A stretch of DNA of 64,000 nt from positions 10,884 to 74,883 of the forward strand of contig JAZQFT010000010.1 of assembly GCA_045539655.1 (NCBI GenBank), given 5' to 3'. The notes under the pieces are model-generated. The model saw only the letters and a program-made list of their open reading frames with translations. It was not told the DNA's origin and searched no databases. The DNA is from Ruminococcus sp. (lineage in GTDB: Bacteria > Bacillota > Clostridia > Oscillospirales > Acutalibacteraceae). Shown piece after piece: positions 10,002-43,123 of the stretch; positions within the stretch are counted from its first letter, which is position 1; every line of letters begins with the position of its first letter. A program made the translations under genes and the position numbers.

Positions 10002-10170
10002 AATTCCGACCTCCTAATAAAAATACATATAGCCACAATAAGTATATCACTTATCAAGAAAAAAATAAATGCTTTTTTAAAAATTTACATAGATTTTTAT
10101 TTCAACAAAAGCGCAAAAAATATGAATATTACATAAAAATCAGCGAAAAATTAGAATGAGGTGCTGTAAA

Positions 10171-10485: not shown

Positions 10486-10514
10486 AAAAGCAGGCTGATA
10501 AGCCTGCTTTTTTT
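10486..10514. terminator. Bidirectional terminator
   Basis: AAAAAGCAGGCT-gata-AGCCTGCTTTTT between convergent genes. Confidence 0.8.
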
Positions 10515-10521
10515 GTGTGTA

Positions 10522-12390: not shown

Positions 12391-12641
12391 TTGAACACCT
12401 ACCAGTTCAATCTGGTTTGATATAGTAATATTATAAATGGCAACAAATTATTGTCAAGGTGTTCAAGGATCTGATAATTGTGTTTGAGGAGTATGCTTTT
12501 TTTGCTATTTACTTACCTTTATTTGCTTTTATATATACTTTGAATTGAAATAAAAATAGTTTTGATATAATATTAGAATGATGTTTTGTGAGCATACTGA
12601 TGTGTGCTCAAAAATCAAATTTGTTTTTAGGAGAAATGAAA

Positions 12642-14558
12642 ATGAAAAAAATGAGCAAAAGAATGCTCAGCCTCTTGCTGTCACTCGTTATTTTAGCGAG
12701 CCTTTGTACAGTAGTACTCACAGCGAATGCGGCTGACACAGCAATCACTGTTTACTTCAAGAACACAAAAGGCTGGAGCACAGTCAATGCCTATGTATGG
12801 CCTAAGGGCGGCGAGGGTGCTGTTAAGTGGCCTGGCTCAGCTATGACAAGCCTCGGCGACAACATCTTTTCTTTTGAAGTTCCTGCTGGCAACGATATGA
12901 TTATCTTCAACGGCAACAGCCAGCAGACAGACGACCTCACTATCCCTGGTGACAACTACATTTATGACGGAACAAAGTGGGACATATATGACATATCTTC
13001 TGTTGAACCTGTCATCACTGTTTCTAAGAAAGACGGCTCTTCTTTCAAGTCTGATACACTCGACGTTACTGTAACAGTCAGCTACGCTGATTCTGCTACA
13101 TACTCAGTTGACGGTAAAGCTGCTGTTGCTTTCACTGACTCTGCTGTTGTAACAGTAGGTAGCGGAATTGCTGTTGGTGCTACAACTACACTCACAGTCA
13201 CTGCTACAAACAGCAACGGCACTATTACACAGACATATACATACACAAAGAAAGAGGCAGGAGTTATCGATGGTGACGGTTCCACATCACCTGCACTCGA
13301 CGGCTACTATGCTACTAACCCTGACGGTCAGGTTGGTAAGCAGGCTTCTATCTCAATCGACGGTTCTATCTCTGATTGGGACAGCTCAATGCTCATCGCA
13401 CAGGGCGTTGCTAATGATGACCCACGTGTATATCGTGACAGCTCAATGCACGAGATTCCTGTTGATGACTATGCTCTGTATGCAGCATGGGACAACTCTA
13501 ACCTCTATCTCATGTGGGAAATGGCTAACGTTCAGGACTCAGTAGCTCCTGCTGATGACTTCCCACTCACACAGGGCAACCTGTGGATTTACAACCTCCC
13601 ATTCTTCCTTTATCTGAGCGTTGACCCTGAAATTGAGGGTGACGGTACTGTTGAATCAGGCGGTACAGTATGGGATACAGGTACAACAATCGACGCTAAT
13701 ATCGACACAGTAATCGCATATTCTACAAATGCTTCTAACGGTCCTTTCGTTTACAAAGCAAACGACGAGGGCAAAATCGTGTATGACGATACAAAGTATT
13801 CTGCAATCAAGCTCGCTTATGGTAACGACACTATCTCAACAGAGCTCTGGGGCGTTGACAAGGGTCACGGCTCTTACAACAACCGTGTAGCAGGCGACAC
13901 ACTCGATTCTTCAAGCAAATGGGTTAATTTCTACGAAGCTGGTATGAAGCACAGCAAAAAGATAGATATGTTCTATGAGATGTCTATTCCGCTCGACTTG
14001 CTCGGCATTTCTGCTAGTGAGCTCACAAGCAACGGTATCGGCGTCATGAAGATATCTACTTTCGGTACTTCTGCTATGAACACACTTCCAGCTGACCCTT
14101 CAACATGGGACAACGCTGCACAAGAGTATTCAAAAGACCCTTCAAGCTCAATGGAGAAAGAAGACTCTGACCATATCACAGTTCCTCTTGCTAGAATTGG
14201 TAAGGCACTTGAAGGTGGCATAACTCCTACTCCAAAGCCAACTGTTCCAACTCCAACAGTTCCTCAGCCAACTGAACCTCAGCCAACTGAACCTCAACCG
14301 ACTGAAGCTCCTCAGCCGTCAACTCCTGAGGGTGGCTCATCATATATGATCGGCGACTCTGACGGTAACGGCAAAATCGCTGTTGTTGACGCAACAGCTA
14401 TCCAGAGAGTTCTCGCTGACATCGTGACAGAAGATGAAATCGACGCAAAAGCAGCTGACTGCAACAAGAACGGTAAGCTCGAAATCGTCGATGCTACTCT
14501 TATCCAGAGATATCTCGCTGAATACGAAGATCTATACGGCATCGGAACAATGAGATAA
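12642..14558 (+). CDS. Starch-granule adhesion protein CBM26-Ig-like-CBM74-dockerin (R. bromii Sas6-like)
   Basis: Signal peptide; CBM26 (VYFKNTKGWSTVNAYVW..WPG..M); CBM74 signature (YYATNPDGQVGK..IDG..SDW..MLIAQGVANDDPRVYR..SMHE..DDYALYAAWD); PTEPQ linker; C-terminal dockerin. Start placed 8 nt after AGGAG. Confidence 0.85.
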   Translation: MKKMSKRMLSLLLSLVILASLCTVVLTANAADTAITVYFKNTKGWSTVNAYVWPKGGEGAVKWPGSAMTSLGDNIFSFEVPAGNDMIIFNGNSQQTDDLTIPGDNYIYDGTKWDIYDISSVEPVITVSKKDGSSFKSDTLDVTVTVSYADSATYSVDGKAAVAFTDSAVVTVGSGIAVGATTTLTVTATNSNGTITQTYTYTKKEAGVIDGDGSTSPALDGYYATNPDGQVGKQASISIDGSISDWDSSMLIAQGVANDDPRVYRDSSMHEIPVDDYALYAAWDNSNLYLMWEMANVQDSVAPADDFPLTQGNLWIYNLPFFLYLSVDPEIEGDGTVESGGTVWDTGTTIDANIDTVIAYSTNASNGPFVYKANDEGKIVYDDTKYSAIKLAYGNDTISTELWGVDKGHGSYNNRVAGDTLDSSSKWVNFYEAGMKHSKKIDMFYEMSIPLDLLGISASELTSNGIGVMKISTFGTSAMNTLPADPSTWDNAAQEYSKDPSSSMEKEDSDHITVPLARIGKALEGGITPTPKPTVPTPTVPQPTEPQPTEPQPTEAPQPSTPEGGSSYMIGDSDGNGKIAVVDATAIQRVLADIVTEDEIDAKAADCNKNGKLEIVDATLIQRYLAEYEDLYGIGTMR

Positions 14559-29255: not shown

Positions 29256-29855
29256 GTGGTAAATATGTTATCCTATATATTTGTGTTTATGATAGTCATA
29301 TCTGTTTTGTGTTCGATGATATTCAAGGGCACTCATGAGCTGTCACAGTCGATGCTAGATGGAGCAAGTGAAGCGGTGGAGCTGCTCATTATGATGAGCG
29401 GAATGATGTGTCTGTGGTCGGGGGTGATGGAGGTCGCAAGAAAGGCTCAGCTCACCGACAAGCTTGCAAAGGTGTTTTCGCCTGTGCTCAAAAAGCTCTT
29501 TCCTGACATCAAAAAAGACAGCAAGGCTTTTCAATATATATGTATGAATGTGAGCGCTAATCTGCTTGGGCTTTCAAATGCTGCAACGCCGTTCGGGATT
29601 TCTGCTATGAAAGAGCTCAAAAAGGATTTGCTGAGTGATGAAGCCAGTGACAGTATGGTGACATTTGTTGTGATGAATACAGCGTCAATTCAGCTCATAC
29701 CGACAAATGTTGCGACTCTGCGCTCAGTACTGGGGTCACAATCGCCCTTTGACATAATTTTTTGTGTGTGGGTGACATCTGTTATCGCTCTTGCTGTGGG
29801 GCTGACAGTATCAAAGCTGTGTTGCAAATATGGGAGGAAAAGATGGAGCTTGTGA
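29256..29855 (+). CDS. spmA: Spore maturation protein A
   Basis: MCLWSGVM, NVSANLLGLSNAATPFG, FVVMNTASIQLIPT. Confidence 0.93.
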   Translation: MVNMLSYIFVFMIVISVLCSMIFKGTHELSQSMLDGASEAVELLIMMSGMMCLWSGVMEVARKAQLTDKLAKVFSPVLKKLFPDIKKDSKAFQYICMNVSANLLGLSNAATPFGISAMKELKKDLLSDEASDSMVTFVVMNTASIQLIPTNVATLRSVLGSQSPFDIIFCVWVTSVIALAVGLTVSKLCCKYGRKRWSL

Positions 29856-30349
29856 TGCCGATAGTCATTGCGTTTGTACTTACATATGCACTTGTTAAGA
29901 AGGTGAATGTTTTCGAAGCTTTTACTGACGGTGCAAAAGATGGAATAAAAACGCTTTTTAATATTGCGCCGACGCTCATAGGACTTATAGTATCGGTTAC
30001 TATGCTCAAAGCAAGCGGAGCACTCACAGCTATGTGTGACGTGTTGTCGCCGATATTTTCAAAAATAGGTTTTCCCAGTGAGTTGTTGCCGATGACTTTG
30101 CTTCGACCGGTGTCAGGAGGAGGCTCGACAGCACTGCTCAATCAGGTGCTAAAGAGTAGTGGACCCGACAGCTTTGTCGGACGATGTGCGAGCGTGATTG
30201 CGGGGTCAACGGAAACTACCTTTTATGCGATAACCGTGTATTACGGAGCTGTTAGCATAAAGAAAATCCGCCATACGCTTTTTGCTTCGCTTATGGCGGA
30301 TTTTACGGCTGCTGTAATCGCAGTAGTCAGTGTCAACTTGTTTTATTAG
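29843..30349 (+). CDS. spmB: Spore maturation protein B
   Basis: FEAFTDGAKDG, LLRPVSGGGS, GSTETTFYAITVYYGAV. Start after GGAGG at 29843. Confidence 0.93.
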   Translation: MELVMPIVIAFVLTYALVKKVNVFEAFTDGAKDGIKTLFNIAPTLIGLIVSVTMLKASGALTAMCDVLSPIFSKIGFPSELLPMTLLRPVSGGGSTALLNQVLKSSGPDSFVGRCASVIAGSTETTFYAITVYYGAVSIKKIRHTLFASLMADFTAAVIAVVSVNLFY

Positions 30350-31745
30350 ATGGCTGTCGGATACGAGTGAGCTTGTACAACAGCTCTTTTGGATGAAGTG
30401 GGAACAATGGATACATATAGCTTTTTCCTGAGAGAGTTTTGTTTGTGAAGAGCAGAACGATGTTCAAGACGATGCCACCCACAAAGCCCCAGAAGTTGAA
30501 CAGCCTTGTCAAAATCAGCAGAATAACACGCATAAATTTCAGGCTGTAGCCCAGCTCGTAGCTTGGCTGGCTGTAGTTTGCGATAGTGACAAACGCCATA
30601 TACAGGATAACCTCCATCGAAAACCATCCTGAATCAATCGCAAATTCAGAGAAAGCGATGGCTCCGATGATGGAAAGCGATGCGGACAGGCTGTCAGGAG
30701 TGTTGAGCGCTGCGAGTCGCAGTCCGTCGATGCCGATTTCTATCAGTATAAGCTGCCAGAAAATTGAGATGTTGATATTTTGCATATCGGGGATAACAAA
30801 CTGAAAAACTTCAGGTACAGCATCGGGGTTTTGCACCGCAAGTAACCACAATGGGGTGAGCAGTACCGATACAAATGTGATGAGGTATCTCGCTATTCTG
30901 ATATATGTTCCTGTGATAGGAGGGAAGTAGTAGTCGTCGGCTTCTTCGAGCACTTCGAAAATCGAAGTCGGCAATATCAAAGCAGACGGTGAGTTGTCGA
31001 CCAGAATTATGATGCTTCCTTTGAGGCATACCGCAGCAGCAACATCGGGTCGCTCGGTGTATTTTACCTTTGGGAAAGGGTTGTACCATTTTTTTGGATA
31101 GAGTGCTTCGATGAGGCTTTGTTGGTTCATCGACAGGGACTCTATATCCAGATTTTGTATCTTGTTTTTGATTGTGTTTAGTAGCGTTTTGTCAACCTTA
31201 TTGTCCATATAGCACAGCACAATGTCGGTTTGTGAGGATTTTCCTGCTGATAGCACTGTGGTGGTGAATTTTGGGTCACGGATACGTCGTCTTATCAGAG
31301 CACAGTTGAAAATCAGCGTTTCGACAAAACCGTCTTTAGAGCCTCTGAGCACCTTGTCGTCCTGCGGTTCAGAGGTGGAACGCTGGGGGTAGGTACGCAT
31401 ATCGAGCATAACACATTCTGAAAAACCGTCCACAATAATGCACGAGATACCTGACAGCACGTTTTTGACGACCATATTGATGTCGCCCATAACATCTACC
31501 TCGACATAAGGCACACAGTATGACGCAAAGGTGCGTGCGTCTTTTGTGATATCATCACTTGTGTTCTGGTAGAAGTATTCCATGATGTGTTCCATGGTAT
31601 CGTCTTTTACAAAGCCATCGATGTAGAACATGACGGCCTGCTTTTGTTGCAGGGTGATTTTTCTTTCGATGATGTCAAAGCACTGGTCACTGCGTAACGC
31701 TTCTTTGAGTATGCGTCTGTTTTCTTCGAAATTGTTGCTTAACAT
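30333..31745 (-). CDS. GerA-family spore germination protein (SpoVAF-like)
   Basis: EPQDDKVLRGSKDGFVE, NCALIRRRIRD, YTERPD, VDNSP and a multi-TM C-terminal half. Probable start MLSNN at 31745. Confidence 0.88.
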   Translation of the reverse strand: MLSNNFEENRRILKEALRSDQCFDIIERKITLQQKQAVMFYIDGFVKDDTMEHIMEYFYQNTSDDITKDARTFASYCVPYVEVDVMGDINMVVKNVLSGISCIIVDGFSECVMLDMRTYPQRSTSEPQDDKVLRGSKDGFVETLIFNCALIRRRIRDPKFTTTVLSAGKSSQTDIVLCYMDNKVDKTLLNTIKNKIQNLDIESLSMNQQSLIEALYPKKWYNPFPKVKYTERPDVAAAVCLKGSIIILVDNSPSALILPTSIFEVLEEADDYYFPPITGTYIRIARYLITFVSVLLTPLWLLAVQNPDAVPEVFQFVIPDMQNINISIFWQLILIEIGIDGLRLAALNTPDSLSASLSIIGAIAFSEFAIDSGWFSMEVILYMAFVTIANYSQPSYELGYSLKFMRVILLILTRLFNFWGFVGGIVLNIVLLFTNKTLSGKSYMYPLFPLHPKELLYKLTRIRQPSNKTS

Positions 31746-31824
31746 TTTATCTGTCCTAACATAAAGTGTTACTATATCATACCCTGAAAACAAAGTTTTT
31801 ATAGAAATTTTAAGAAATTTTTCT

Positions 31825-31852
31825 AAAAGTTGCATAGTTTTATGCAACTTTT
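31825..31852. promoter_or_regulatory. Perfect 12-bp inverted repeat upstream of the particle operon (operator or attenuator)
   Basis: AAAAGTTGCATA-gttt-TATGCAACTTTT followed by a T-rich tract, 47 nt before the terS start. Confidence 0.6.
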
Positions 31853-31899: not shown

Positions 31900-32403
31900 T
31901 TGAAGAATAAGGATAGTGGGCTTACTCAGCGTGAAAAACTGTTCTGTGTATGTTTTGCAAGCACTGCAGACATAGAACACTCAGCAAAGTGCGCCGGGTA
32001 CGACAAAGAGCCACTGAAAAAAGGACAAGCGTTGTTATTAAAACCTGAGGTTGCTGACGAAATAGTGTCGCTTTCCAAAAACCGAGAGCGTGCTATGAGT
32101 GAGGTGACACAGCTTTTTTATGAGAGGCTGGCGTTTGGGAGCATAGCAGATGCAGTGAGCCTTTTGTATATGGACTCTCCCACAAAAGAACAGTTGAGCA
32201 AAATGGATCTGTATATGGTTCAGGAAATCAAAAAGCCAAAGGACGGTGCAATGGAGATAAAGTTTTTTGACAGACTCAAAGCGCTGGAGAAAATAGCTCA
32301 AAGCAGAGAGGATACAAAACAAGTGAGCAGCTCGCTCGTTGAGGCTTTGTATCAGGGCGCACAAAAAATAAGTGATTGTGCGGGTGAGAGCATTGAGCTA
32401 TAA
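31900..32403 (+). CDS. Terminase small subunit
   Basis: LTQREKLFC..SAKCAGY..GQALLLKPEV is the HTH pattern of phage TerS; AAAGGA RBS with TTG start. Confidence 0.8.
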   Translation: MKNKDSGLTQREKLFCVCFASTADIEHSAKCAGYDKEPLKKGQALLLKPEVADEIVSLSKNRERAMSEVTQLFYERLAFGSIADAVSLLYMDSPTKEQLSKMDLYMVQEIKKPKDGAMEIKFFDRLKALEKIAQSREDTKQVSSSLVEALYQGAQKISDCAGESIEL

Positions 32404-33646
32404 ACCTTTTTCAAAAAAGCAGATGCTCGCACTCACATGGTGGATGGAAAATTCGAAGTACAAAAGCTGCGACGCTGTGATCTGTGACGGGGCTGTCAGA
32501 TCAGGCAAGACTTTCTGTATGTCGCTGTCGTTTGTGCTGTGGGCATTCTCAGCCTTTTCTGATTCGTCTTTTGCGTTGTGTGGAAAAACTATACGCTCAC
32601 TAAGGCGAAATCTTGTCACTGAGCTTATTTCTCCGCTTTCTGAGCTTGGCTTTGAAATCACTGACAAACACAGCGAAAATATGCTGATTCTAAGCTACCA
32701 CAACAGAGTTAACCGCTTTTATCTTTTTGGTGGCAAGGACGAGGGGTCTGCCTCGCTGATTCAGGGTATGACGTTGTGTGGGATTTTGCTTGATGAGGTA
32801 GCGCTGATGCCACGGTCTTTTGTCGAGCAGGCCTTGGCACGTTGCTCAGTATCAGGCTCTACTTTTTGGTTCAACTGTAATCCTGAGTATCCGTCCCACT
32901 GGTTTTATAATGAGTGGATAAAAAAAGCAAAACAAAAGAACGCTTTGTATATCCATTTCACAATGCAGGACAACCCATCTCTTTCCAAAAAGATGATAAA
33001 ACGCTACGAAAAAATGTATTCGGGTGCGTTTTTCAGACGCTTTGTGAAAGGTGAGTGGGTTGCAGTCAACGGTGCTGTGTATCCGTTTATGGAGCACAGC
33101 GATGCGTTCCCTGATGTTCCAAAAGGCGACTTCGAGAGTTATGCGGTGTCGTGTGACTATGGCACCGTGAACCCTGCGTCGTTTGGGCTATGGGGAAAGA
33201 AAAACGATGTGTGGTACAGGATTGATGAGTATTATTTTGACTCAAAAAAAGAGGGCTACCAACGCACAGACGAAGAGCATTACAACGCATTGTGTGAGCT
33301 CATAGGTAGCAAAGAAGTTTCTCTCATAGCAGTAGACCCGTCAGCGGCAAGCTTTATTGAGGTAATCAAAAGGCACGAAGAATTTAGCGTAGTGCCAGCA
33401 CAAAACAACGTTATCGACGGAATACGCTGTGTGAGCTCAGCTTTAAAAGATAAACGAATCATCATATGTAACAACTGCAAAGCATCGATAAGAGAGTTCT
33501 CCCTTTACAGATGGAGCGAAAACTCAAAAAACGATGCTGTAGTAAAACAAAATGACCACGCTATGGATGACATAAGATATTTTGTCACCACGATTATGAA
33601 CGGCGAGGACGACTCTTTTGTCGCTCTGGCTGCAAAAAGATATTAG
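32372..33646 (+). CDS. Terminase large subunit (PBSX-like)
   Basis: Walker A DGAVRSGKT, Walker B LLDE, coupling motif NCNP; nuclease acidic residues in CDYG, VDPS and NDHAMD. Confidence 0.92.
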   Translation: MIVRVRALSYKPFSKKQMLALTWWMENSKYKSCDAVICDGAVRSGKTFCMSLSFVLWAFSAFSDSSFALCGKTIRSLRRNLVTELISPLSELGFEITDKHSENMLILSYHNRVNRFYLFGGKDEGSASLIQGMTLCGILLDEVALMPRSFVEQALARCSVSGSTFWFNCNPEYPSHWFYNEWIKKAKQKNALYIHFTMQDNPSLSKKMIKRYEKMYSGAFFRRFVKGEWVAVNGAVYPFMEHSDAFPDVPKGDFESYAVSCDYGTVNPASFGLWGKKNDVWYRIDEYYFDSKKEGYQRTDEEHYNALCELIGSKEVSLIAVDPSAASFIEVIKRHEEFSVVPAQNNVIDGIRCVSSALKDKRIIICNNCKASIREFSLYRWSENSKNDAVVKQNDHAMDDIRYFVTTIMNGEDDSFVALAAKRY

Positions 33647-33665
33647 TGCCACAGGAGGTAATATA

Positions 33666-34820
33666 TTGAAATTATTTTCTGCAAAAAAGAAAAGCACAGC
33701 AGATGCTACAGTACAGACCTCTCTGTCGAGTACAAACTCCCATCCGTTTTATTCGCTTGATAACTACAACCCGTACTGTGAAAAGCAACTTGAGCTGTAC
33801 AGCTCTTTGCGTGAAGCGGTGCCGGTCATCGATGCGGCTATATCAAAGCTCATAAGGCTTATAGGTACATTCACAGTACAGTGTGAGCAAAAACAGGCTC
33901 AAAAAGCGCTCGAGAGCTTTCTGAATAATGTGCAGGTAAACAACTGTTCATATGGTGTGATGAACTTTATCTACACTTATTTTGATCAGCTGCTCACATA
34001 CGGAACAGCAGTATCGGAGATAGTGCTGTCAAATGACAGAAAAAGTATCCGTGCGCTTTATAATGCGTCACTCAAAGATGTTGAGCTCAGACGTAGCAAA
34101 AACAATCTGGGTGTGACAGTGTGCGTCAAAAACGCTGACGGTACATTGAGTGAAGCAAAGTATCAGGATTTAATTTTTGTAGGGCTCTTGAATCCGACAC
34201 CAGGCACACTGCAGGGCACATCTATACTCAAGGGACTTCCGTTTGTAAGCTCTATATTGCTCAAGATTTTCAACACAATCGGTGTGAATTTTGAGCGTAT
34301 AGGTAACGTGAGATTTGCGGTCACATACAGACCGCCCGAAAACTCTCACGTCAGCACAAAACAGCGTGTACAGGAAATTGCAACCCAGTGGAGCAAAGCT
34401 ATGCGTGACAAAACTCAGGTGAGCGACTTTGTGTCTGTGGGAGATGTATCGGTGAAGGTCATCGGTGCGGATAATCAGGTGCTCTCGTGTGATATCGAGA
34501 TTCGACATCTACTCGAACAGATAGTATCAAAGCTGTGCATACCTCCGTTTTTGTTGGGCCTTTCGTGGAGCTCAACCGAGCGAATGAGTGCTCAACAGGC
34601 GGATATTTTGACAAGTGAGCTTGAGTATTACAGAACTCTCATTAACCCGCTTATCACAAAGATTTGCAGATACTTTTTGAGACTCAACGGCTATAGTGAC
34701 GAGTTTTCTATCAACTGGAGCAACATCAGTCTTTTAGACGAAACAGAGCTCGCACAAGCGAGACTTCACAATGCTCAGGCAAAACAGATTGAATCTACAC
34801 TTGCGGAGGTGAAAGATTGA
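33666..34820 (+). CDS. Portal protein
   Basis: Position after terL; ~385 aa; LYSSLREAVPVIDAAI..L, IPPFLLG and LEYYR..I.P.I patterns. Start after AGGAGG at 33666. Confidence 0.8.
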   Translation: MKLFSAKKKSTADATVQTSLSSTNSHPFYSLDNYNPYCEKQLELYSSLREAVPVIDAAISKLIRLIGTFTVQCEQKQAQKALESFLNNVQVNNCSYGVMNFIYTYFDQLLTYGTAVSEIVLSNDRKSIRALYNASLKDVELRRSKNNLGVTVCVKNADGTLSEAKYQDLIFVGLLNPTPGTLQGTSILKGLPFVSSILLKIFNTIGVNFERIGNVRFAVTYRPPENSHVSTKQRVQEIATQWSKAMRDKTQVSDFVSVGDVSVKVIGADNQVLSCDIEIRHLLEQIVSKLCIPPFLLGLSWSSTERMSAQQADILTSELEYYRTLINPLITKICRYFLRLNGYSDEFSINWSNISLLDETELAQARLHNAQAKQIESTLAEVKD

Positions 34821-35806
34821 AAACAGGCAAAGTGATAAAATGTGCTGACACATCAGTCAGCGAAAACGACCTAAGTTTAATCAACAAATACACTCGCAGA
34901 GAGCTCACAGCACAAGACGTGTATGTGTTTTCTGTAGTGCTGTGTGATAACGATATTGACAGAGATTTCGAACGATTCACTGTCGAATCGCTCTTTGAAC
35001 TGGAAAAGCTTTTTGTCGGAAAAACAGGTATTTTCGACCACAACCCGAGTGCAACTAACCAGACAGCACGAATTTTTTCTTGTAAGGTTGAGCACGTTGA
35101 GGGCAAAAAAACCGCAACAGGCGATGATTATTTCCGCCTTGTTGCAAAAGCATATATACCAAAAAGCGAAGGAAATACTGACATTATTCTGAGCCTTGAC
35201 TCCGGCATCATCAAGGAGGTCAGTGTCGGCTGTGCAGTGAAGAGCACGCTGTGCTCAATTTGTTCCAACGACATTTCTTCAACGATGTGCCATCACGTGA
35301 AAGGAAAAGAGTATCACAAGAAGCTATGCTACGGAGAGCTGGACGGTGTTATAGATGCATATGAGTTCAGCTTTGTAGCAGTACCGGCGCAGAAAAACGC
35401 AGGTGTAATCAAGGCTTTCTCAGAAAGCAAAAGGGAGAATAAAAATATGAAGGACATACTTGTAGCAATAAAAAAGGGCGAAGACGTGACACTCAAATCA
35501 CATCAGTCAAAAAGCCTGTGCGAATATATCGCTCAGCTTGAAGAAAAAGCGAAAGACGGCGAGCTCTATAAAGAGAATCTCAAAAAAAGCGTTGTCAGGC
35601 TGATGGGTGTTTTTCAGCCGAATATTTCGACAGATACTTTACACAGCATTGTCGAAAAGCTGACTGTACAGGAACTTTCAACGCTGAAAGAAGCGTACAA
35701 AGAGTCAGCCACCCAATGCGAAAAAATCGCCCCACAGCTCGGTGTTAGCGAAAGCTCAAAAGATGCTGTGAAAAAATCTGATAAAAACAATCAGTTTACT
35801 ATTTAA
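34817..35806 (+). CDS. Prohead protease fused to C-terminal coiled-coil scaffold
   Basis: DIDRDFERF, FDHN (His), KEVSVG (Ser) and YEFSFVAVPAQ motifs; helical C-terminus. Confidence 0.75.
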   Translation: MKTGKVIKCADTSVSENDLSLINKYTRRELTAQDVYVFSVVLCDNDIDRDFERFTVESLFELEKLFVGKTGIFDHNPSATNQTARIFSCKVEHVEGKKTATGDDYFRLVAKAYIPKSEGNTDIILSLDSGIIKEVSVGCAVKSTLCSICSNDISSTMCHHVKGKEYHKKLCYGELDGVIDAYEFSFVAVPAQKNAGVIKAFSESKRENKNMKDILVAIKKGEDVTLKSHQSKSLCEYIAQLEEKAKDGELYKENLKKSVVRLMGVFQPNISTDTLHSIVEKLTVQELSTLKEAYKESATQCEKIAPQLGVSESSKDAVKKSDKNNQFTI

Positions 35807-35818
35807 CAGGAGGAAATT

Positions 35819-36154
35819 ATGAATATCAATTTTTCAGGTTATAACGAAAACGTAGTCACCTTTGAAGTAGCAGGAACAGATGTTACTATGGGCACACCCG
35901 TCAAGATGAGCTCGTCTGCTACTGTTACAAAGTGTAGCGACGGTGACAATATGATAGGTGTAGCGGTGAATGTACGCAACGGTTACGCTGCGGTACAGCT
36001 CACAGGCTATATCGAAATGCCTACAGAAGACACAATCTCAGTCGGCTACCAGACTCTTTCTGTAAACGAAAATGGTACGGTAGAAGTGAGTTCAACAGGC
36101 AGAGAGTACCTTGTTACTTATGCACAGCAGGGTATCGTAGGCTTTATTCTTTAA
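35819..36154 (+). CDS. Head decoration/cement protein (DUF2190-like)
   Basis: 111 aa beta-rich ORF between protease and capsid (G.PVKM...V......IGVA....G.AAVQL.G). Confidence 0.6.
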   Translation: MNINFSGYNENVVTFEVAGTDVTMGTPVKMSSSATVTKCSDGDNMIGVAVNVRNGYAAVQLTGYIEMPTEDTISVGYQTLSVNENGTVEVSSTGREYLVTYAQQGIVGFIL

Positions 36155-36174
36155 TTTGAAAGGAAGGAAAAACA

Positions 36175-37185
36175 ATGGCATTATACGAAAATCTAAACCT
36201 TGAAAAAGGTATGTATCAGGCTAAGGGCAAATCTTTGACTGACGTGCTCGAAGCCCTAGACCCATCTGATAACTATGTGGGTACACCGCTTGAAAATCTG
36301 GACGCTTTTTCTCGTCAGCTCAAGCGTTTTGACATCAAAGTATCAGGAGAGGGCTCGGACTGTGTTGAAAAGTTCTTCCAGTCATCAAACTCAGCAGCGC
36401 TTTTTCCTGAATATGTTTCCCGTGCTGTAAAGCAGGGTATGCAAGACGCTGACATCCTCTCTGACATTGTAGCAACTGTTACAACAATCGACGGTATGGA
36501 CTACAGATCTATCACATCTGATCCTGCTGAAGACGACAAGTCGCTCGCTGTTGTAAACGAGGGTGCATACATTCCACAGACAGTTGTGAAAACAAACGAA
36601 AATCTCGTCAAGCTCCACAAACGAGGCAGAATGCTCGTGTCATCATACGAAGCACTCCGTTTTCAGCGACTTGACCTTTTCACAGTAACACTCAAGCAGA
36701 TTGGTGCATATATTGCCAGAGCACAGCTCAAAGATGCAGTTGACACTATCCTAAACGGTGATGGCAACAACAATGCGTGCGGTTCTATCGAGAGTGCGAC
36801 CGCTGACAAACTAGAATATGCTGATCTCATTTCACTTTGGGCAACTCTTTCTCCGTATCAGCTCAACACTGTCTTGGCACCAACAGATGCTATGAAAAAG
36901 ATTTTGTCCCTTGCTGAGATGAAAGATGCTGCTGCAGGACTCAACTTCCAGGGTAGCGGAAAGATGGTCACACCACTGGGTGCCAACCTCTTGCACACAA
37001 ATGCTATCACATCGGACCTCATCATCGGTCTTGACAAAAACTGTGCTCTTGAGATGGTGAAAGCGGGCGACGTTGTCACTGACTACGACAAGCTCATCGA
37101 CAGACAGCTTGAACGTGCAACTGTCAGCTGTATCGCAGGCTTTGCAAAGATTTTCAAAGACGCATCAGTGAAGCTTACATACTAA
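36175..37185 (+). CDS. Major capsid protein (HK97 fold)
   Basis: 336 aa after a strong RBS; V.EG..IP, K.GR....SYE.L, ..I..Q..RA...A..TI.NGDG and DKLIDRQ patterns. Confidence 0.82.
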   Translation: MALYENLNLEKGMYQAKGKSLTDVLEALDPSDNYVGTPLENLDAFSRQLKRFDIKVSGEGSDCVEKFFQSSNSAALFPEYVSRAVKQGMQDADILSDIVATVTTIDGMDYRSITSDPAEDDKSLAVVNEGAYIPQTVVKTNENLVKLHKRGRMLVSSYEALRFQRLDLFTVTLKQIGAYIARAQLKDAVDTILNGDGNNNACGSIESATADKLEYADLISLWATLSPYQLNTVLAPTDAMKKILSLAEMKDAAAGLNFQGSGKMVTPLGANLLHTNAITSDLIIGLDKNCALEMVKAGDVVTDYDKLIDRQLERATVSCIAGFAKIFKDASVKLTY

Positions 37186-37191
37186 AGGCAG

Positions 37192-37563
37192 GTGGACACC
37201 TTGAGTTTAAAAGATGTGCTGGACAGATTTGCTCTGGTGTCAGGCCTTGAGCAAGAAGAAATTTCCAAGTGGATTTTTGTTATCACTGACTGCATAAAAT
37301 ACTTTGAGAGCAGGCTCAATACAAAATCACTCAGCGACGTTCAGAAAAGAAGACTCACACACGCGTGTGCGGTGTATTCGTACTATAAGTACACGCTGAT
37401 GACCTTTGCATCAAAAAGTGCGAAATTCAAAGCGGGTGACATCGAAATCACACACAGCGAAAATATGCTTGATTATGCCCACTCGATGTGGCAACAGGAG
37501 AAAAGCGAGATCGTCGATATCATTGATTTTGACGACTTTTGTTTTTGCAGGGTGAGAGTATGA
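37192..37563 (+). CDS. Head-tail connector (adaptor)
   Basis: Helical 123 aa immediately after the capsid gene; GDIEI motif; assigned mainly by synteny. Confidence 0.55.
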   Translation: MDTLSLKDVLDRFALVSGLEQEEISKWIFVITDCIKYFESRLNTKSLSDVQKRRLTHACAVYSYYKYTLMTFASKSAKFKAGDIEITHSENMLDYAHSMWQQEKSEIVDIIDFDDFCFCRVRV

Positions 37564-37919
37564 GCTTTCATAAAAGTGTAAAAAACCTCATAGAAAACTA
37601 TGGTAGCGATGTCACCATAAAAAGAGACGAAACTTCGGTGCACACAAAAGCGTTTATTCAGCCGCTGAGGTATAAAAACAACGTTAGTAACGATATATCT
37701 ATTACTATGGGTGGTTTTTCGGACGGAAGATATTACCTGTATATCGGAAAGGCAGAAAATGAATTTATCAGAGCAGATGATGCAATAATTTTATGTAACG
37801 GTAGAAAATATACTGTACATACAAGCGAAAGATTTGAGCTGTATGACAAGGTACTCTATGTGTGGGCGGTGCTAAAACCGTACAAAAGTCTGAGGAGCGA
37901 TGATTTTGAAACAAATTGA
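37560..37919 (+). CDS. Head closure protein
   Basis: Beta-rich ~120 aa (AFIQPL..YLYIG..D.I...G.KY.V..YVWAVL); synteny. Confidence 0.5.
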   Translation: MSFHKSVKNLIENYGSDVTIKRDETSVHTKAFIQPLRYKNNVSNDISITMGGFSDGRYYLYIGKAENEFIRADDAIILCNGRKYTVHTSERFELYDKVLYVWAVLKPYKSLRSDDFETN

Positions 37920-38343
37920 AGACTATATCAATGAGCTGATGCTCAAAATAAAGAAAGATGACTCGCTGTCACAATATTGCTTTGTGAAAGGGTTTTCGGC
38001 ACGTGAGTTTCCTAATCCGCTGACAGATTACGTGATAGCGGTTTCAACGCTCGATACTCAGGTCGGCGTTGAGTTTTTTGGAGAAACTGTGGGAGATAAT
38101 CTTTGTGGCAGTATGTATAATGCGACGCTTAAATTCAGGGTGTATGCTCAAAAAAACGAGGGTGGCGAGGGGCTTTTGGCCCTCGCACACACCTTGTGTG
38201 AGGCACTCAAGAAAAACGATAGCGAAAATACGATACAAAACATCACCACATCATCAATATCCTTTGATAATGATGCTATGACCGTGTACAGAGATGTTGT
38301 TGCAGAGCTTTCGTTTTGTCTTTATGAGGAGGTTACAGTATGA
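37900..38343 (+). CDS. Tail terminator/completion protein
   Basis: 147 aa; synteny between neck and tube genes. Confidence 0.5.
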   Translation: MILKQIEDYINELMLKIKKDDSLSQYCFVKGFSAREFPNPLTDYVIAVSTLDTQVGVEFFGETVGDNLCGSMYNATLKFRVYAQKNEGGEGLLALAHTLCEALKKNDSENTIQNITTSSISFDNDAMTVYRDVVAELSFCLYEEVTV

Positions 38344-38723
38344 ATACGCTGAGAATTCTGAAAGGTAAGGATATCACTATTTCAGTAGATGGCACGGTGC
38401 TGTGCTTTGTGACAGATTTTGTCGCACAAGAAAGTGAAGAAAGATACGAAATAAAGGAGTTTCTGAGTAGCGAGCCTGTGGACAGCGTGGAGCTCAAAAA
38501 AAGCTATGAGCTCAAAATCACAGCACTCACACATTTCAATAAAAAAGTGTTTGAAAAACAGCCTTTTACGCTGAGAGTGTGCGATGGAGATACTGAGTAT
38601 GAGTACATTTCATGTCGACTCAAAAACAGTGTTCGTGACGTGAATGCGAGCAAGACTATCGTTGATAAATACACTATAGTTGCGCAGGATATGAAGGTGT
38701 TGGAGGGTCAGTATGAGCGATAA
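38340..38723 (+). CDS. Tail tube protein (XkdM/contractile-tube-like)
   Basis: 127 aa; GKDITISVDG..EIKEF..YELKIT..FTL..Y..C pattern resembling PBSX XkdM-type tubes; synteny. Confidence 0.55.
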   Translation: MNTLRILKGKDITISVDGTVLCFVTDFVAQESEERYEIKEFLSSEPVDSVELKKSYELKITALTHFNKKVFEKQPFTLRVCDGDTEYEYISCRLKNSVRDVNASKTIVDKYTIVAQDMKVLEGQYER

Positions 38724-38865
38724 TATAGAAAACATACTGGTAAAAGAAAAGGCGGATGTGCTCAGTAGCTTTGATTCGGTTTATAGCATAATGGAAATGT
38801 TTGAGCGTGATGCTCGTCGTTTCAACAGGGCGTTTTCTGAAGAAAAAGAGGTGAGCGTAAAATGA
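38713..38865 (+). CDS. 50-aa ORF in the tape-measure position (not in ORF track)
   Basis: MSDNIENILVKEKADVLSSFDSVYSIMEMFERDARRFNRAFSEEKEVSVK; GGAGG RBS; overlaps both neighbours (ATGA coupling with 38862). Confidence 0.7.
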   Translation: MSDNIENILVKEKADVLSSFDSVYSIMEMFERDARRFNRAFSEEKEVSVK

Positions 38866-39380
38866 AGCTTGTTCCAATGAGATTTATGGGATATATGTGG
38901 CATCACAACCCTAAGTCGCTCAATATAGAAAGCGACAAAAAGGTCGTGAGGCTGAGCGTTCCGTACAGCTTTGATATTGTTCAGAATTTTGGCGAGAGCC
39001 CTGTGAAGATAACAGGCACAGGTGAGCTGTATTCTAAAGACTGTTTGAGTCAGTTTGAACGGCTCAATGAGCTGTTCAAAAAGGGTGAGTGCGGTGTTTT
39101 GTGTTTGCCGGGGGTTTCGCCGATGTATGCGTGTTTTGACACACTGACTTTGATAGCACAGCCGACACCTGATGTGCTTACATATAGCTTTTCTTTTACT
39201 CAGGTAAAAAGAAGACCCAAGTGTGATGGTGTTACACGATATGCAGATGCCGGCGCATATCGCTCGCTATGGGAGGTTGCACGAGATTATAACGCAGATA
39301 TTAAAACGTTGATAAAGCTCAATCCTCATATTATGTTTATCAACGATTTGTCAGACGCAGAAAGGGTGAGAGTATGCTGA
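38862..39380 (+). CDS. Baseplate tube-initiator (Mu gp43/DNA_circ_N-like) with C-terminal LysM
   Basis: N-terminal MRF.GY.W.HNP; C-terminal SLWEVARDYN..I..L..LNP.I LysM pattern. Confidence 0.65.
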   Translation: MKLVPMRFMGYMWHHNPKSLNIESDKKVVRLSVPYSFDIVQNFGESPVKITGTGELYSKDCLSQFERLNELFKKGECGVLCLPGVSPMYACFDTLTLIAQPTPDVLTYSFSFTQVKRRPKCDGVTRYADAGAYRSLWEVARDYNADIKTLIKLNPHIMFINDLSDAERVRVC

Positions 39381-40303
39381 GATTTGAATTCACTGATATT
39401 TATGACAAGGTAGTTACTTTGAAAAATCCGCTTTCGCTGGTTATCAACATTGAAGAAGATGTTCCCGCAGATGATATGACGGTTGTTTTTGAGTATTTCG
39501 AGACCTCTGAGCTCAAAGAGGTCAGAGTTTTTGATGAAAACGAGGTAGTCTTTACGGGCGTTGTGGACGAAATCAGCAGCGTGTGTGATAGCACGGGCAG
39601 ACTCATGAAAATTGTGTGTCGCAGCATGGCCGCAAAGCTGCTAGATAATGAGAGTGTTCCTATCAGCTACAACAGACCAAGCGTGTCGGTCATTGCTACG
39701 AATCACATAAAACCGTTCGGACTTCTTTGTGCTAGCACAGAAGACACTACATATATTGGTACTCAGACCGTACCAAAAGGAGCGAGCAACTGGCAGGCGG
39801 TGTCGGATTTTTCGAAGAACGTGTATAGCACAGCGCCCAGGGTGAATGCCCGTGGTGAGGTTGAATTCTGTGATAAAAAGGATAAAGAGAAAGTCGTGTT
39901 TTCTAACAGCGAGGGTATCAGCTATATAAGCCTTACTGAAACCATAAAGCGATGTGAAGAAATTTCTAAAGTTTATATCAAGGTGATAAATTCATCAGGC
40001 TATAACAATACTATCGAAAACGCTGATGCACTCAAAAGAGGCATAGAGCGAGAGCGATATTTGAACGCTGTTATGACCGACACACCTGCTCAGTGTGCTG
40101 ACAAAATGATAAAAAATGGTCGGGATAAGTCGTATGTCGTGACACTTACTTGTGTGGGCAGACACCTGAATATATTTGCACATCCAGCTGTGGTGAAGGA
40201 TAAAAAGCTGTGCTTTGATGATTTGTACATCAGTGCTCTGAGATATCAGCTCAACTCAAAAAACGATGTGACTACAGTCACTCTCAAGAGAAAGGAAGTA
40301 TAG
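39374..40303 (+). CDS. Baseplate hub (Mu gp44/XkdQ-like)
   Basis: 309 aa; VVFTGVVDE...CRS.AAKLLDNE pattern; synteny. Confidence 0.65.
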   Translation: MLRFEFTDIYDKVVTLKNPLSLVINIEEDVPADDMTVVFEYFETSELKEVRVFDENEVVFTGVVDEISSVCDSTGRLMKIVCRSMAAKLLDNESVPISYNRPSVSVIATNHIKPFGLLCASTEDTTYIGTQTVPKGASNWQAVSDFSKNVYSTAPRVNARGEVEFCDKKDKEKVVFSNSEGISYISLTETIKRCEEISKVYIKVINSSGYNNTIENADALKRGIERERYLNAVMTDTPAQCADKMIKNGRDKSYVVTLTCVGRHLNIFAHPAVVKDKKLCFDDLYISALRYQLNSKNDVTTVTLKRKEV

Positions 40304-40304
40304 T

Positions 40305-40640
40305 ATGTGGCTACTTGATTATGTTACAAAAAACTCATTTCAAAAAGATGATATCAGTTGTGGCGATGTTACCTCGAGCAACATGGGTGTTGTTGCGGTC
40401 AACTCATCTCTTGAGCATCGTGATGTTCCCATTGTTGCACCGTTCGGGGTAGCGTACAATCCGCCGGTGGGAGAAAAGTCAGTGGTGCTACCGCTGCAAG
40501 ATGGCAGAGCGTGTGTCGGGGTTATCGCTCCGTATAAGATGCTCGAACCGGGCGAAGTGATGCTTTTTTCAAAAGGCGGTGCGTCGATAGTGCTGAAAAA
40601 CGACGGCACTGTACTCATAAACGGGAAGGTGTATGAGTAG
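40305..40640 (+). CDS. Baseplate spike (Mu gp45-like), short
   Basis: APFG...PPVGE..VVL..LEPGEV.LFS.GG..I.L..DG.V.ING. Confidence 0.7.
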   Translation: MWLLDYVTKNSFQKDDISCGDVTSSNMGVVAVNSSLEHRDVPIVAPFGVAYNPPVGEKSVVLPLQDGRACVGVIAPYKMLEPGEVMLFSKGGASIVLKNDGTVLINGKVYE

Positions 40641-40983
40641 TATGGATGTAAAAATAGAGAACAAGGATATAGCAACAGATAGCTGTTATTCTCCGCTTTA
40701 TATACAGGGCATCGAAGAAATAGCCCAGCGGGTAAAAATTGCGTGCACAATAAAAAAAGGCAGCTTTGTTTATGATGCTAACCTCGGCAGCTTTGCTCAC
40801 ACAGTTGATCTGAGTGATGATATGGCACAAGAAAAGCTCGAGATGATTTTCAAGGAAGCTACGATAGACATTCCATATACGACTCTCAGAATAACCAAAC
40901 TTGATAAAGGCAACAAAATAGCAGTGGTAGAAGTAGTGTGTGGTGAAGAAAGTGTATTGACGGAGGTGATTGTTGATGGATAG
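40633..40983 (+). CDS. Baseplate wedge gp25/gp46-like (XkdS-like)
   Basis: MDV.I..D..G.EE.AQRV.I....KGSFVYD..LGS. Confidence 0.65.
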   Translation: MSSMDVKIENKDIATDSCYSPLYIQGIEEIAQRVKIACTIKKGSFVYDANLGSFAHTVDLSDDMAQEKLEMIFKEATIDIPYTTLRITKLDKGNKIAVVEVVCGEESVLTEVIVDG

Positions 40984-42040
40984 CTACGAAGAAATACTTT
41001 CTAGAATGAAAAGTAAGTATGAAGAGCTTTCTCAAAGCAGTATCAGTGAAGAATCGGATATTATGCTAAGGCTCAAGGTGCTTTCTGCACAAGTGTACAA
41101 CAACCTTGTAGCACAAGAATTTTTGAAGCGTCAGATGTTTGCAACAACAGCGACAGGCGAGTATCTGGACAAGCATGCTATGGAGCGTGGACTTCAGCGT
41201 AAAGGTGCAGTGAAAGCTACAGGAGTGGTGACTTTCTGGGCTGATCAGGCACTTACAAACGACATATGGATACCAAAGGGTGTGGTAGTATCAACTAACG
41301 GACCTGATGTGAAAAAATTTGTGACTACCGAAGTAGCACTTCTGAATAAAAACGAGGTGTCAGTTATGGTTCCTGTAGAGGCCCAAGAGGGCGGTGAGGA
41401 CTACAACGTGGTGGCAAGTAGCGTCAAGGTGCTGGTGACTCCACCTGTTGGCATAACTTCTGTCACAAATAAAAAGGCGTTCACCGGTGGGCTGAACGCT
41501 GAAACTGATGAAGAGCTCAGAGAGCGTGTGCTGTATAGTTACAAAGATATTCCTAACGGCACTAACGAAGTGTACTACAGACGACTTGCGGAGTCGGTTT
41601 TGGGCGTGTATTCAGCGTCCGTTGTGTCACAACAGCGTGGCAGTGGCACAATAGACATCTATGTAAGTGGCAAAGGCGAAAAAGCAGGCAGTGAAGTGGT
41701 ATCAAAGGTTCAGAAGCTCATTGATGAAAACCGAGAGATAAACGTTGACGTGAAAGTCAGCGAGGCGACTGTTTCTGCTGTCAGCTACACGCTGGAGCTC
41801 ACTGTCGAAGACGGATACAGTTTTTCTTCTGTGTCAAACAAAGTGAAGGACAAGCTTTCTGAGTACATAATATCCTTAGGAATCTCAGAGCCTATTTTGC
41901 TCAGCGATCTGGGTGACATTGTTTATCACACACAGGGAGTGAAAAACTACAGCTTTGTGGACACGTTTAGCTATGATGTGTATCCGCACCAGAACGAACG
42001 ATGCGAAGTGGAAAGCATAGAGATTTGGCAGGTGAAATAA
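40970..42040 (+). CDS. Baseplate J/gp47 protein (XkdT-like)
   Basis: TATGEYLDKHA..RGLQRK.A, GG..AETDEELRER, GT....Y.., RGSGTIDIYV. Confidence 0.9.
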   Translation: MLMDSYEEILSRMKSKYEELSQSSISEESDIMLRLKVLSAQVYNNLVAQEFLKRQMFATTATGEYLDKHAMERGLQRKGAVKATGVVTFWADQALTNDIWIPKGVVVSTNGPDVKKFVTTEVALLNKNEVSVMVPVEAQEGGEDYNVVASSVKVLVTPPVGITSVTNKKAFTGGLNAETDEELRERVLYSYKDIPNGTNEVYYRRLAESVLGVYSASVVSQQRGSGTIDIYVSGKGEKAGSEVVSKVQKLIDENREINVDVKVSEATVSAVSYTLELTVEDGYSFSSVSNKVKDKLSEYIISLGISEPILLSDLGDIVYHTQGVKNYSFVDTFSYDVYPHQNERCEVESIEIWQVK

Positions 42041-42600
42041 TGGACACATATGTTTCGATGAAAGAAGCTCTGTATCCACTTGATATATATAGCTTTGATG
42101 ACACAAATATCTCATATGAGCTGATGGCGTACAGCGTGGTGCTCGATGAGCTCAACAGCGAGCTGTGCACTATGCTTTCAGAGTGTTTTGTGCAAAGCGC
42201 AAGTAGCTACGGATTGTCAGAGCGAGAGATTGTTGTCGGCGCACAAAGAGATGATTTGAGCATACAAGAGCGTCGTGAAATGCTAATGCTCAGAAACAGC
42301 CTTGATAACAACAGCTTTACTTTGTCAAAAATAAAAAATGCGCTGAAAAGTTTTGGCCTTTCTTGTAATGTGTATGAGTACCCAAATCAGTTTGTGATAG
42401 TTCTGGATGCGATAGGTACCTACAAAAGTGAGCAAAAGGCGTGGATACGAGCTGAAGTACAAAAAATTATGCCTGCTCACCTTCAGGTACAGGTCATTTT
42501 CGGCGGACCTTCGTGGGATACAATAGATCAAAATAACAACACCTACGCATATCTGGACTCAGTTGATATGACGTGGGACAGTATAGATAACTTAGAATAA
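42040..42600 (+). CDS. Baseplate wedge protein (DUF2313/YmfQ, gp48/XkdU-like)
   Basis: F...A...GL..RE, ..ERR..L, ..IMPAHL.V motif. Start at 42040. Confidence 0.8.
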   Translation: MDTYVSMKEALYPLDIYSFDDTNISYELMAYSVVLDELNSELCTMLSECFVQSASSYGLSEREIVVGAQRDDLSIQERREMLMLRNSLDNNSFTLSKIKNALKSFGLSCNVYEYPNQFVIVLDAIGTYKSEQKAWIRAEVQKIMPAHLQVQVIFGGPSWDTIDQNNNTYAYLDSVDMTWDSIDNLE

Positions 42601-42610
42601 GGAGGATGTT

Positions 42611-43078
42611 ATGGCTTCAACTTCATATACAAAAAATCTTGGGCTGTGTGCGTGGAACAGCTCGGACAGACCCAAGCGAATGGACTTTGTACAGGATAAT
42701 AATATCATTGACACAAAGCTCGGCGAGCATCTTGTGGACAGCTCAATTCACGTGACAGCAAAAGAAAAAGAAGCTATCGCTTCGCCGTATAAAGTGGTCA
42801 CTTATGTTGGTGACGGAAAAGCTCAAAAGACAATTTCGTTGGATAACAGCTATACGTATGCCATAGTGTTCCAGAAGTTTTACCCGCCTGTTGAAATGGA
42901 TGCAAGTGGAAACGCAGTGACACGTTTTGCTGTTGTAGGCAGGGTGTTCGGCTCCAATGCTGATGTTGTGCTGAAAAGCGATTCGATTGTTGTTGTGCAA
43001 GGGGCATCAGTAACACAGGGTATGATAAATAATTTTAACGAAGAAGAGGGACAGTATGTGATCTTGCTGTTCAAGTGA
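42611..43078 (+). CDS. Short tail fibre / receptor-binding-like protein
   Basis: N-terminal T.NLGL..W...D.....DF..N..IID..L is a common fibre-anchoring motif; last gene of the operon. Confidence 0.55.
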   Translation: MASTSYTKNLGLCAWNSSDRPKRMDFVQDNNIIDTKLGEHLVDSSIHVTAKEKEAIASPYKVVTYVGDGKAQKTISLDNSYTYAIVFQKFYPPVEMDASGNAVTRFAVVGRVFGSNADVVLKSDSIVVVQGASVTQGMINNFNEEEGQYVILLFK

Positions 43079-43087
43079 TAAAAACAA

Positions 43088-43116
43088 AAAAGCACCTACC
43101 GTTTTGGTAGGTGCTT
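43088..43116. terminator. Terminator closing the particle operon
   Basis: AAGCACCTACC-gtttt-GGTAGGTGCTT between convergent genes. Confidence 0.8.
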
Positions 43117-43123
43117 TGTGCTT

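Follow-up and report, generated by a model that had tools for sequence, protein, structure and literature searches.

A phage-derived operon of Ruminococcus and related gut bacteria encodes a contractile-type baseplate without a sheath gene and with a putative tape-measure remnant

Among tailed phages, the morphotype of the tail (contractile, long non-contractile or short) is regarded as deep-rooted and stable. PBSX, a defective phage-like particle of Bacillus subtilis, packages random host DNA, and by gene order it is the nearest named system to the operon described here, which lies in a stretch of 64,000 nucleotides from Ruminococcus sp. (GenBank assembly GCA_045539655.1, contig JAZQFT010000010.1, positions 10,884 to 74,883 of the forward strand; hereafter the window). 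The operon occupies 31900-43078 on the + strand of the window and consists of 18 densely packed, mostly overlapping open reading frames (ORFs) over ~11 kb. Like PBSX it is a chromosomal, non-replicating particle operon, and its tail genes follow the order of xkdK-xkdU: tube, (chaperone, tape measure), LysM protein, hub, small spike, gp25-like protein, baseplate J and gp48-like protein. However, PBSX encodes XkdK (sheath), XkdN (chaperone) and XkdO (long tape measure) and builds a long contractile tail; all three proteins are missing or vestigial in the operon of the window, whose head genes are also unrelated to those of PBSX at the BLAST level. The reading favoured here, in which we have fair confidence, is that a phage-derived particle operon of the gene transfer agent (GTA) or PBSX kind has become fixed in the chromosome, and that its tail is a contractile tail reduced to an extreme degree. 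What is new is a variant within the domesticated phage-like particles of contractile-tail lineage.

Other described systems share parts of this layout. The solved clostridial myophage and tailocin tails (phiCD508, diffocin) and the tail of Mu contain chains that are matched by the tube, tube initiator, sheath initiator and hub of the operon, but all of them contract and possess a sheath as well as a long tape measure. RcGTA of Rhodobacter capsulatus likewise lacks replication genes and is a head-tail operon that has been domesticated and is inherited vertically; its tube fold is related (6tba, 6toa), but its tail is of the siphovirus type, with a tape measure, distal tail protein, hub and megatron, and has no baseplate J/gp25 wedge. 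FpGTA of Faecalibacterium prausnitzii is, like the element studied here, a GTA-like element of gut Oscillospirales; it forms ~40 nm particles with no visible tail, which were read as podovirus-like and which contain pieces of host DNA 8.4-8.9 kb long (Borodovich et al., Nat Commun 2026, PMC12946183). FpGTA belongs to a true podovirus lineage, with an N4-gp56-family capsid protein, a homologue of a tail nozzle (PDB 8eap) and two operons, while the window element combines an HK97/TIGR01554-type capsid protein with a Mu/PBSX-type baseplate in one operon. Identity with FpGTA was thus ruled out, as the window capsid protein is TIGR01554/PF25209 and not N4-gp56 and no nozzle family was found. A literature search returned nothing relevant on a sheathless or very short contractile tail, a sheathless baseplate-J tail, a GTA in R. 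bromii or such elements in R. bromii-like bacteria. No cultured phage with such a tail was found either: for the LysM initiator and the capsid protein the only matches are unannotated faecal contigs named 'Bacteriophage sp.', and the nearest phage relatives of baseplate J, which is present in a single copy genome-wide, are ordinary myophages at ~30% identity.

The tail module at 38340-42600 contains eight of the 18 ORFs, all where a preliminary description of this DNA had placed them, and belongs to the contractile Mu/PBSX lineage. That assignment had been made, among other genes, on the LysM initiator, hub, baseplate J and PF10076 genes, and each of these identities was confirmed (Table 1). 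The 127-amino-acid (aa) protein had been called an XkdM-like tube. An AlphaFold model built on an alignment of 51 orthologues has the tail-tube fold, with tube 8q01_A of phage 812 as the best Foldseek match and the tubes of monocin, diffocin, lambda (V), Mu and phiCD508 as further matches. However, no Pfam family, XkdM included, was matched at E <= 0.01, and PHROGs and NCBIfam were uninformative, so that the tube assignment stands while, judging by the model, the likeness to XkdM is one of fold only. The model of the 172-aa protein matches the tube initiators Pvc7 (6j0n_b), phiCD508 9g8s_S and Afp7 (6rao_G), together with the Mu baseplate chain 9ki1_0 and diffocin chains. For the spike, the best PDB match of the profile is weak (E 0.015) and covers residues 47-129 of Mu gp45; compared with that 197-aa protein, the 111-aa spike has no room for a beta-helix tip. 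The short spike was described before as a mark of this tail; it is indeed short, but this is not special to the sheathless form, since the spikes of sheathed relatives (below) are also only 116-135 aa. The family of the 116-aa protein was recognized through its orthologues, 29 of 45 of which match PF10934 (best 4.6e-8), and through its profile, which matches gp34 of E217 (8e-6) and gp35 of Pa193 in the PDB. The last gene of the operon encodes a 155-aa protein with no family in Pfam, PHROGs or NCBIfam, and by position it is the sole receptor-binding candidate in the operon. In three related clusters (L135-L137) a gene of equal size holds the same slot. No podovirus tail family (nozzle, tail-knob or gp4/gp10-type) was found in any operon product with Pfam, PHROGs or NCBIfam, and a likeness to the podovirus tails of T7, P22 or phi29 type would concern shape only.

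Table 1. Features of the particle operon, in window coordinates.
Feature	Coordinates	Strand	Evidence
Terminase small subunit	31900-32403	+	PF03592 2.8e-12; phrog_2606
Terminase large subunit, 424 aa	32372-33646	+	PF03237 1.4e-21; phrog_2 3.5e-48
Portal protein	33618-34820	+	PF04860 6e-10; phrog_30703 1e-120
Head-maturation or scaffold-like protein, 329 aa, candidate function by position	34817-35806	+	phrog_16951 (unknown function) 3.5e-94; no Pfam match
Cement/decoration-like head protein	35819-36154	+	PF09956 weak 1.4e-3; phrog_4588 virion structural protein 4e-15
HK97-type major capsid protein	36175-37185	+	PF25209 3e-15; TIGR01554
Neck protein 1, adaptor candidate by position	37192-37563	+	kept in 78 loci; no family match
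Neck protein 2, head-closure candidate by position	37539-37919	+	kept in 78 loci; no family match
Neck protein 3 (ht3), tail-terminator candidate by position	37900-38343	+	no Pfam, PHROG or PDB-sequence match
Tail tube protein, 127 aa	38340-38723	+	AlphaFold2 predicted local distance difference test (pLDDT) 85; Foldseek E 4e-7
Putative mini tape measure, 50 aa, vestige of tape-measure C-terminus, motif FERDARRFNRAF	38713-38865	+	conservation; homology to sister tape measures
Tube initiator, 172 aa, tube-fold domain and C-terminal LysM	38862-39380	+	AlphaFold2 pLDDT 86; Foldseek; LysM profile E 5e-12
Baseplate hub, Mu gp44-like, 309 aa	39374-40303	+	phrog_177 3e-12; PDB 3d37 6e-8
Short central spike, 111 aa, Mu gp45 N-terminal part, no beta-helix tip	40305-40640	+	PF06890 weak 3.5e-3; 9ki1_V E 0.015
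gp25-like sheath initiator/wedge, 116 aa	40633-40983	+	PF10934 in orthologues; PDB profile match
Baseplate J wedge protein, 356 aa	40970-42040	+	PF04865 5e-48
Mu gp48-like wedge protein, PF10076, 199 aa	42001-42600	+	1e-10; phrog_521
Last operon gene, 155 aa, candidate short fibre/receptor-binding protein by position	42611-43078	+	conserved in 41 loci
Bidirectional intrinsic terminator ending the operon	43089-43117	.	strong, 13-bp stem

For comparison, related loci were collected by a search of species-representative genomes with the capsid protein as query, which gave 530 matching stretches, of which the 80 best loci were kept (L025-L104); the capsid proteins of these 80 are 71-93% identical to that of the window. 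The absence of sheath, chaperone and tape measure from the operon, which had been claimed for the window, was borne out in this wider set. Within 31900-43078 there is no gene for a sheath, a chaperone or a long tape measure, and since neighbouring genes overlap and only 806-980 bp lie between the second neck gene and the LysM gene in all ~73 loci measured, there is no room for a sheath or a tape measure and no hidden gene between. The slot of the chaperone is closed as well, because the tube gene and the 50-aa ORF that follows overlap by 11 nt.

An obvious alternative is that the tail is completed in trans, with sheath, chaperone and a normal tape measure supplied from elsewhere in the genome or by a helper phage, in which case the tail would be an ordinary contractile one. 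The retention of a gp25-like sheath initiator would fit this, and FpGTA is split into two unlinked operons (PMC12946183). The search for an unlinked sheath that the preliminary description had called for was made across the 1.78-Mb genome (40 contigs, 99.7% complete) and gave no match to PF04984, to which control genomes do respond and which detects the sheath of the sister element L106 (2e-10); PF04984 was the sole sheath model applied genome-wide. A long tape measure is absent from the operon, and no genome-wide search with tape-measure models was made, which counts in favour of the alternative. However, the tape-measure slot is not empty but filled by a conserved remnant with an initiator-proximal motif, the architecture is unchanged in ~75 genomes, and the fusions of a neck protein to the tube protein seen in many lineages (both described below) are at odds with a tube polymer inside a sheath. 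Completion in trans is therefore judged very unlikely.

The remnant in question is the 50-aa ORF at 38713-38865. It had been described as bearing a ribosome-binding site and as translationally coupled, and this proved correct: GGAGGG stands 7 nt upstream of its start, its ATG falls within the last 11 nt of the tube gene and its TGA overlaps the ATG of the LysM gene (ATGA). Conservation in orthologous operons, including that of the ERDARR motif, was also found, as the same slot holds an ORF of 39-55 aa with the motif in 75 of 75 loci. The core [LI]SExFE[RQ]DSRRYxRALxEExEA is conserved while the N-terminal part is variable. This shows that the 50-aa ORF is a real gene. Its profile retrieved 169 clusters (50% identity) from a library of 1.84 billion proteins, nearly all of 31-67 aa, and no long tape measure was among the 150 best matches, which are proteins of 31-95 aa only. 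The ORF has no family in Pfam, PHROGs or NCBIfam, and its profile gave only chance matches against PDB sequences.

The relationship of this ORF to tape measures comes from sister elements that still have a sheath. In the faecal virome contig L106 (MT835769.1, 13738-17490), which has a capsid protein 60% identical to that of the window, the stretch between the third neck gene and the LysM gene encodes a 357-aa sheath (PF17482 1.3e-13, PF04984 2.2e-10), a ~129-aa tube, two chaperone-like ORFs and a 183-aa ORF that ends in ...SLSLERDARRYDGGFLFY. The ht3 gene of sheathed relatives stands upstream of the sheath gene. A further 28 IMG/VR loci (L107-L134) are related to L106, and those that span the region repeat its layout, with tape-measure-like ORFs of 147-243 aa that all end in (E/Q)RD(A/S)RRYD.GF.LY. 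In these sheathed relatives the ORF of 147-243 aa ending in ERDARRYDGGF.LY adjoins the LysM gene on its upstream side, and a position directly upstream of the tube initiator is thus common to the mini-ORF and the sister tape measures. When the mini-ORF profile was aligned with hhalign, it fell on residues 160-180 of the 183-aa ORF of L106 (P 1.7e-5). Two members of the mini-ORF family of 94-95 aa lie in chromosomal clusters with sheath genes of 348-351 aa and chaperone genes. Because the short tape measures of the sister elements with a sheath, 94-243 aa long, have the ERD(A/S)RRY motif at their C-terminus, the 50-aa ORF is a vestigial tape measure that retains the tube-initiator-proximal end. 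The preliminary description had called it a stand-in for the tape measure, and on this evidence it is literally a remnant of one.

Taken as a whole, the sister elements (L106-L139), a family of small chromosomal head-tail clusters, have capsid proteins 56-69% identical to that of the window, and share with its operon the head, neck, tube, LysM initiator, hub and wedge genes in equal order and the C-terminal motif of the tape measure. They differ in that they retain a sheath of 340-401 aa, chaperone ORFs and a tape measure of 94-243 aa. The lengths of the tape measures form a series, from 243 to 147 and then 95 and 94 aa with a sheath to 39-55 aa without one. The short tape measures of the sister elements predict contractile tails of only ~14-36 nm. 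We know of no description of these sheathed elements as a group.

The number of tube rings can be approached in two ways. The first is the ruler relation of ~0.15 nm per tape-measure residue (lambda, T4, TP901-1), by which 39-55 residues would correspond to 6-8 nm, that is, the initiator ring and one tube ring (~4 nm). The second is a recurrent gene fusion. In 16 of 73 sheathless loci ht3 and the tube are a single polypeptide of 240-279 aa, and these fusions fall at >=5 (at least five) separate places in the capsid tree; in the fusion of L099 the neck-protein profile aligns with residues 1-129 and the tube profile with residues 119-254. Because such a fusion implies a 1:1 stoichiometry of the neck-side protein and the tube subunit, its recurrence argues for a single tube ring and is hard to square with many rings, and it supports the earlier proposal of one or a few rings. 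The tail is thus probably a one-ring stub of a kind not previously described. At the level of the genome the earlier interpretation as a stub-tailed virion is supported: all genomic predictions offered with it were borne out, and the living intermediates and the recurrent fusions extend it.

It could also be argued that the 127-aa protein polymerizes without a ruler into a longer, non-contractile, siphovirus-like tail, and that the 50-aa protein only primes assembly or plugs the tube. Tube proteins are capable of self-polymerizing, and the fold of this one is equally close to siphovirus-type tubes (lambda V, monocin, RcGTA). It is established, however, that tube length tracks tape-measure length in every long tail studied. 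The loss of the chaperone genes, the stepwise shortening of the tape measure (243, 94, ~45 aa), which suggests selection on length, and the 1:1 stoichiometry implied by the fusions also speak against a long tube, and we regard this possibility as unlikely.

The operon is widespread in the group. All loci that cover the region, from ~75 species genomes of Ruminococcus/Acutalibacteraceae, have the 18 genes in unchanged order and sizes, and in 64 complete loci the stretch from terL to gp48 measures 9.6-10.5 kb. Judging by record titles, the carriers are Ruminococcus sp., metagenome-assembled genomes of Acutalibacteraceae and Oscillospiraceae, Candidatus Scatavimonas and Scatovicinus, and they include two isolates, Ruminococcus sp. 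YE282 and LCP21S3_E8. The chromosomal site is shared by about half of the loci: 31 of 65 carry a GerA-family gene next to the upstream end of the operon, and in 27 of 53 the operon is followed by a membrane protein, prsA and mfd. Median identities of the capsid protein (76%) and TerL (67%) are comparable to those of the flanking Mfd (75%) and GerA (61%). No integrase, replication, lysogeny or lysis family was detected in the 18 operon products with Pfam, PHROGs or NCBIfam, and cellular genes border the operon on either side. The fixed order, sizes and site, the evolutionary rates of host genes and the lack of these families together give the signature of a vertically inherited, domesticated element.

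The same data bear on the possibility that the operon is a decaying prophage remnant, from which the region from sheath to tape measure was deleted and in which the other genes are non-functional relics. The lack of lysis, integration and replication genes could be taken that way, and a related contig, L105, has head and neck genes only. However, the 18 ORFs are intact with constant sizes and couplings in ~75 species, and although the tail proteins have diverged (values of 30-50% and of 25-40% identity) they are still intact and without frameshifts. The close similarity of the capsid proteins in the 80 loci kept out of 530 stretches and the retention of the motif by the 39-55-aa ORF in every locus examined also contradict decay, which is highly improbable.

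In a tree of four concatenated proteins (scaffold-like, capsid, hub and baseplate J; 1421 columns) the sheathless clade is monophyletic with a support of 0.998 and stands apart from the sheathed elements; that the sheathless form is one clade is claimed for this concatenate only. The sheath appears to have been lost rather than gained, because a gp25-like sheath initiator and a remnant of the tape measure are still there and because every solved or cultured-phage match found for the baseplate type is contractile.

The model that follows from the favoured reading is that the tail of the ancestor would already have been contractile and very short, its tape measure 94-243 aa long, and that this lineage would have deleted the sheath and chaperone genes and trimmed the tape measure to ~39-55 aa. 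The particle would consist of a head, a portal, three neck rings, one hexamer of the 127-aa tube protein and a LysM initiator ring, with a core of hub and spike inside a gp25/baseplate J/gp48 wedge and the 155-aa protein at the distal end. It would have the look of a podovirus with the parts of a myovirus, and its tail would be unable to contract. For DNA to exit, the baseplate would have to free the spike and the mini tape measure upon receptor binding. The role of the particle would be a GTA-like packaging and transfer of host DNA, while lysis, release and uptake would rely on functions that the host encodes outside the operon. The full proposal is that a widespread clade of gut Acutalibacteraceae makes DNA-packaging particles with an undescribed tail type, a myovirus baseplate set on the neck through one tube ring and ruled by a ~45-residue tape-measure remnant, which arose by stepwise shortening (243, 94, ~45 aa) followed by sheath loss and would represent a transition from contractile to podovirus-like within a domesticated GTA. 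For this more detailed proposal we see about even chances.

Several points weigh against these conclusions, in addition to the single sheath model and the missing tape-measure search mentioned above. The gp25-like sheath initiator is kept though the sheath is gone, a possible sign that some sheath remains in use. The dN/dS (nonsynonymous to synonymous substitution ratio) of the mini-ORF has a median of 0.60 compared with 1.1-1.4 in shifted frames, but this is only moderately low and, as most pairs are saturated, weakly informative. The designation of ht3 as a candidate 'terminator' is a positional label; none of the three neck proteins has a recognizable family in Pfam, PHROGs or NCBIfam, and the ht3 profile gave only chance matches against PDB sequences. 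In a tree of the capsid protein only, the sheathed L135 stands beside L099 and L100 inside the sheathless group with a support of 0.98, which hints at module exchange or at more than one loss of the sheath. The cluster has no gene for a cell-wall hydrolase or lysis that would account for the passage of DNA through a Gram-positive wall and for the exit of the particle. Finally, the morphology and function proposed are predictions made from the genes. Separately from these points, the polarity of sheath loss was also considered on the capsid-only tree, and this approach was dropped because it conflicts with the four-protein tree.

As in described GTAs, the operon holds structural and packaging genes only and is conserved at the rates of host genes with vertical inheritance. 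A GTA-like role is suggested because the operon lacks replication, integration and lysis genes and evolves at these rates. A particle might nevertheless be made that transfers no DNA and instead serves killing or adhesion, or in which capsid and baseplate are reused for a structure linked to sporulation. Sporulation-related neighbours (a GerA gene and two Gate-domain genes of SpmA/SpmB size) and the lack of any wall-degrading domain to aid DNA entry in library scans of the operon products would be in keeping with this. However, the two terminase subunits and the portal have been conserved (median identity 45-67%), a sign of DNA packaging, and killing in the manner of a tailocin requires contraction or a pore-forming tail, neither of which is present. 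A particle without DNA transfer thus seems improbable.

If the favoured reading holds, this family offers a natural gradation, its intermediates still living, from a contractile tail through shorter ones to loss of the sheath, with the baseplate kept throughout. The series would test the ruler model of the tape measure at its lower limit, where the indispensable part of the tape measure may be a ~25-residue motif beside the initiator, and it raises the question of what role a baseplate that bears a sheath initiator has without a sheath. The operon is carried by Ruminococcus bromii-like starch degraders and related bacteria of human and herbivore guts. Bacterial DNA carried in virus-like particles (VLPs) has newly been reported for neighbouring families, most taxa having no assigned gene cluster (PMC12946183; bioRxiv 10.64898/2026.07.08.737213). 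The operon is a concrete candidate source for such VLP-borne DNA that lacks an assigned cluster.

The surroundings of the operon are cellular. Upstream, at 29256-31847, are the two Gate-domain genes and the GerA-family germination gene, and downstream are prsA-like, mfd, pth and prs genes. With such a neighbourhood, release through mother-cell lysis is conceivable for an operon that itself has no lysis genes. A perfect palindrome with a 12-bp stem (AAAAGTTGCATA GTTT TATGCAACTTTT) followed by a T tract lies at 31825-31852, just upstream of terS. It sits in the divergent region common to terS and the GerA-family gene and could be an operator or a terminator.

Among the related contigs, L105 (MT835508.1; capsid protein 61% identical) carries at 8100-14203 only terminase, portal, scaffold-like, capsid and three neck genes, and its cluster abuts a 609-aa bacterial gene on the opposite strand that is unrelated to the operon; it is either a tail-less derivative or part of a split system. 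In L135 and L138, bacterial genes directly follow the cluster. Six unannotated human-faecal contigs deposited as 'Bacteriophage sp.' match genes of the operon family (MT835952.1, MT836604.1, MT835769.1, MT837832.1, MT835508.1 and MT838993.1), and the two that were inspected, MT835508.1 and MT835769.1, show the cluster layout. These contigs are probably fragments of bacterial chromosomes and not phage genomes, and as a matter of database hygiene several 'Bacteriophage sp.' records appear to be chromosomal clusters.

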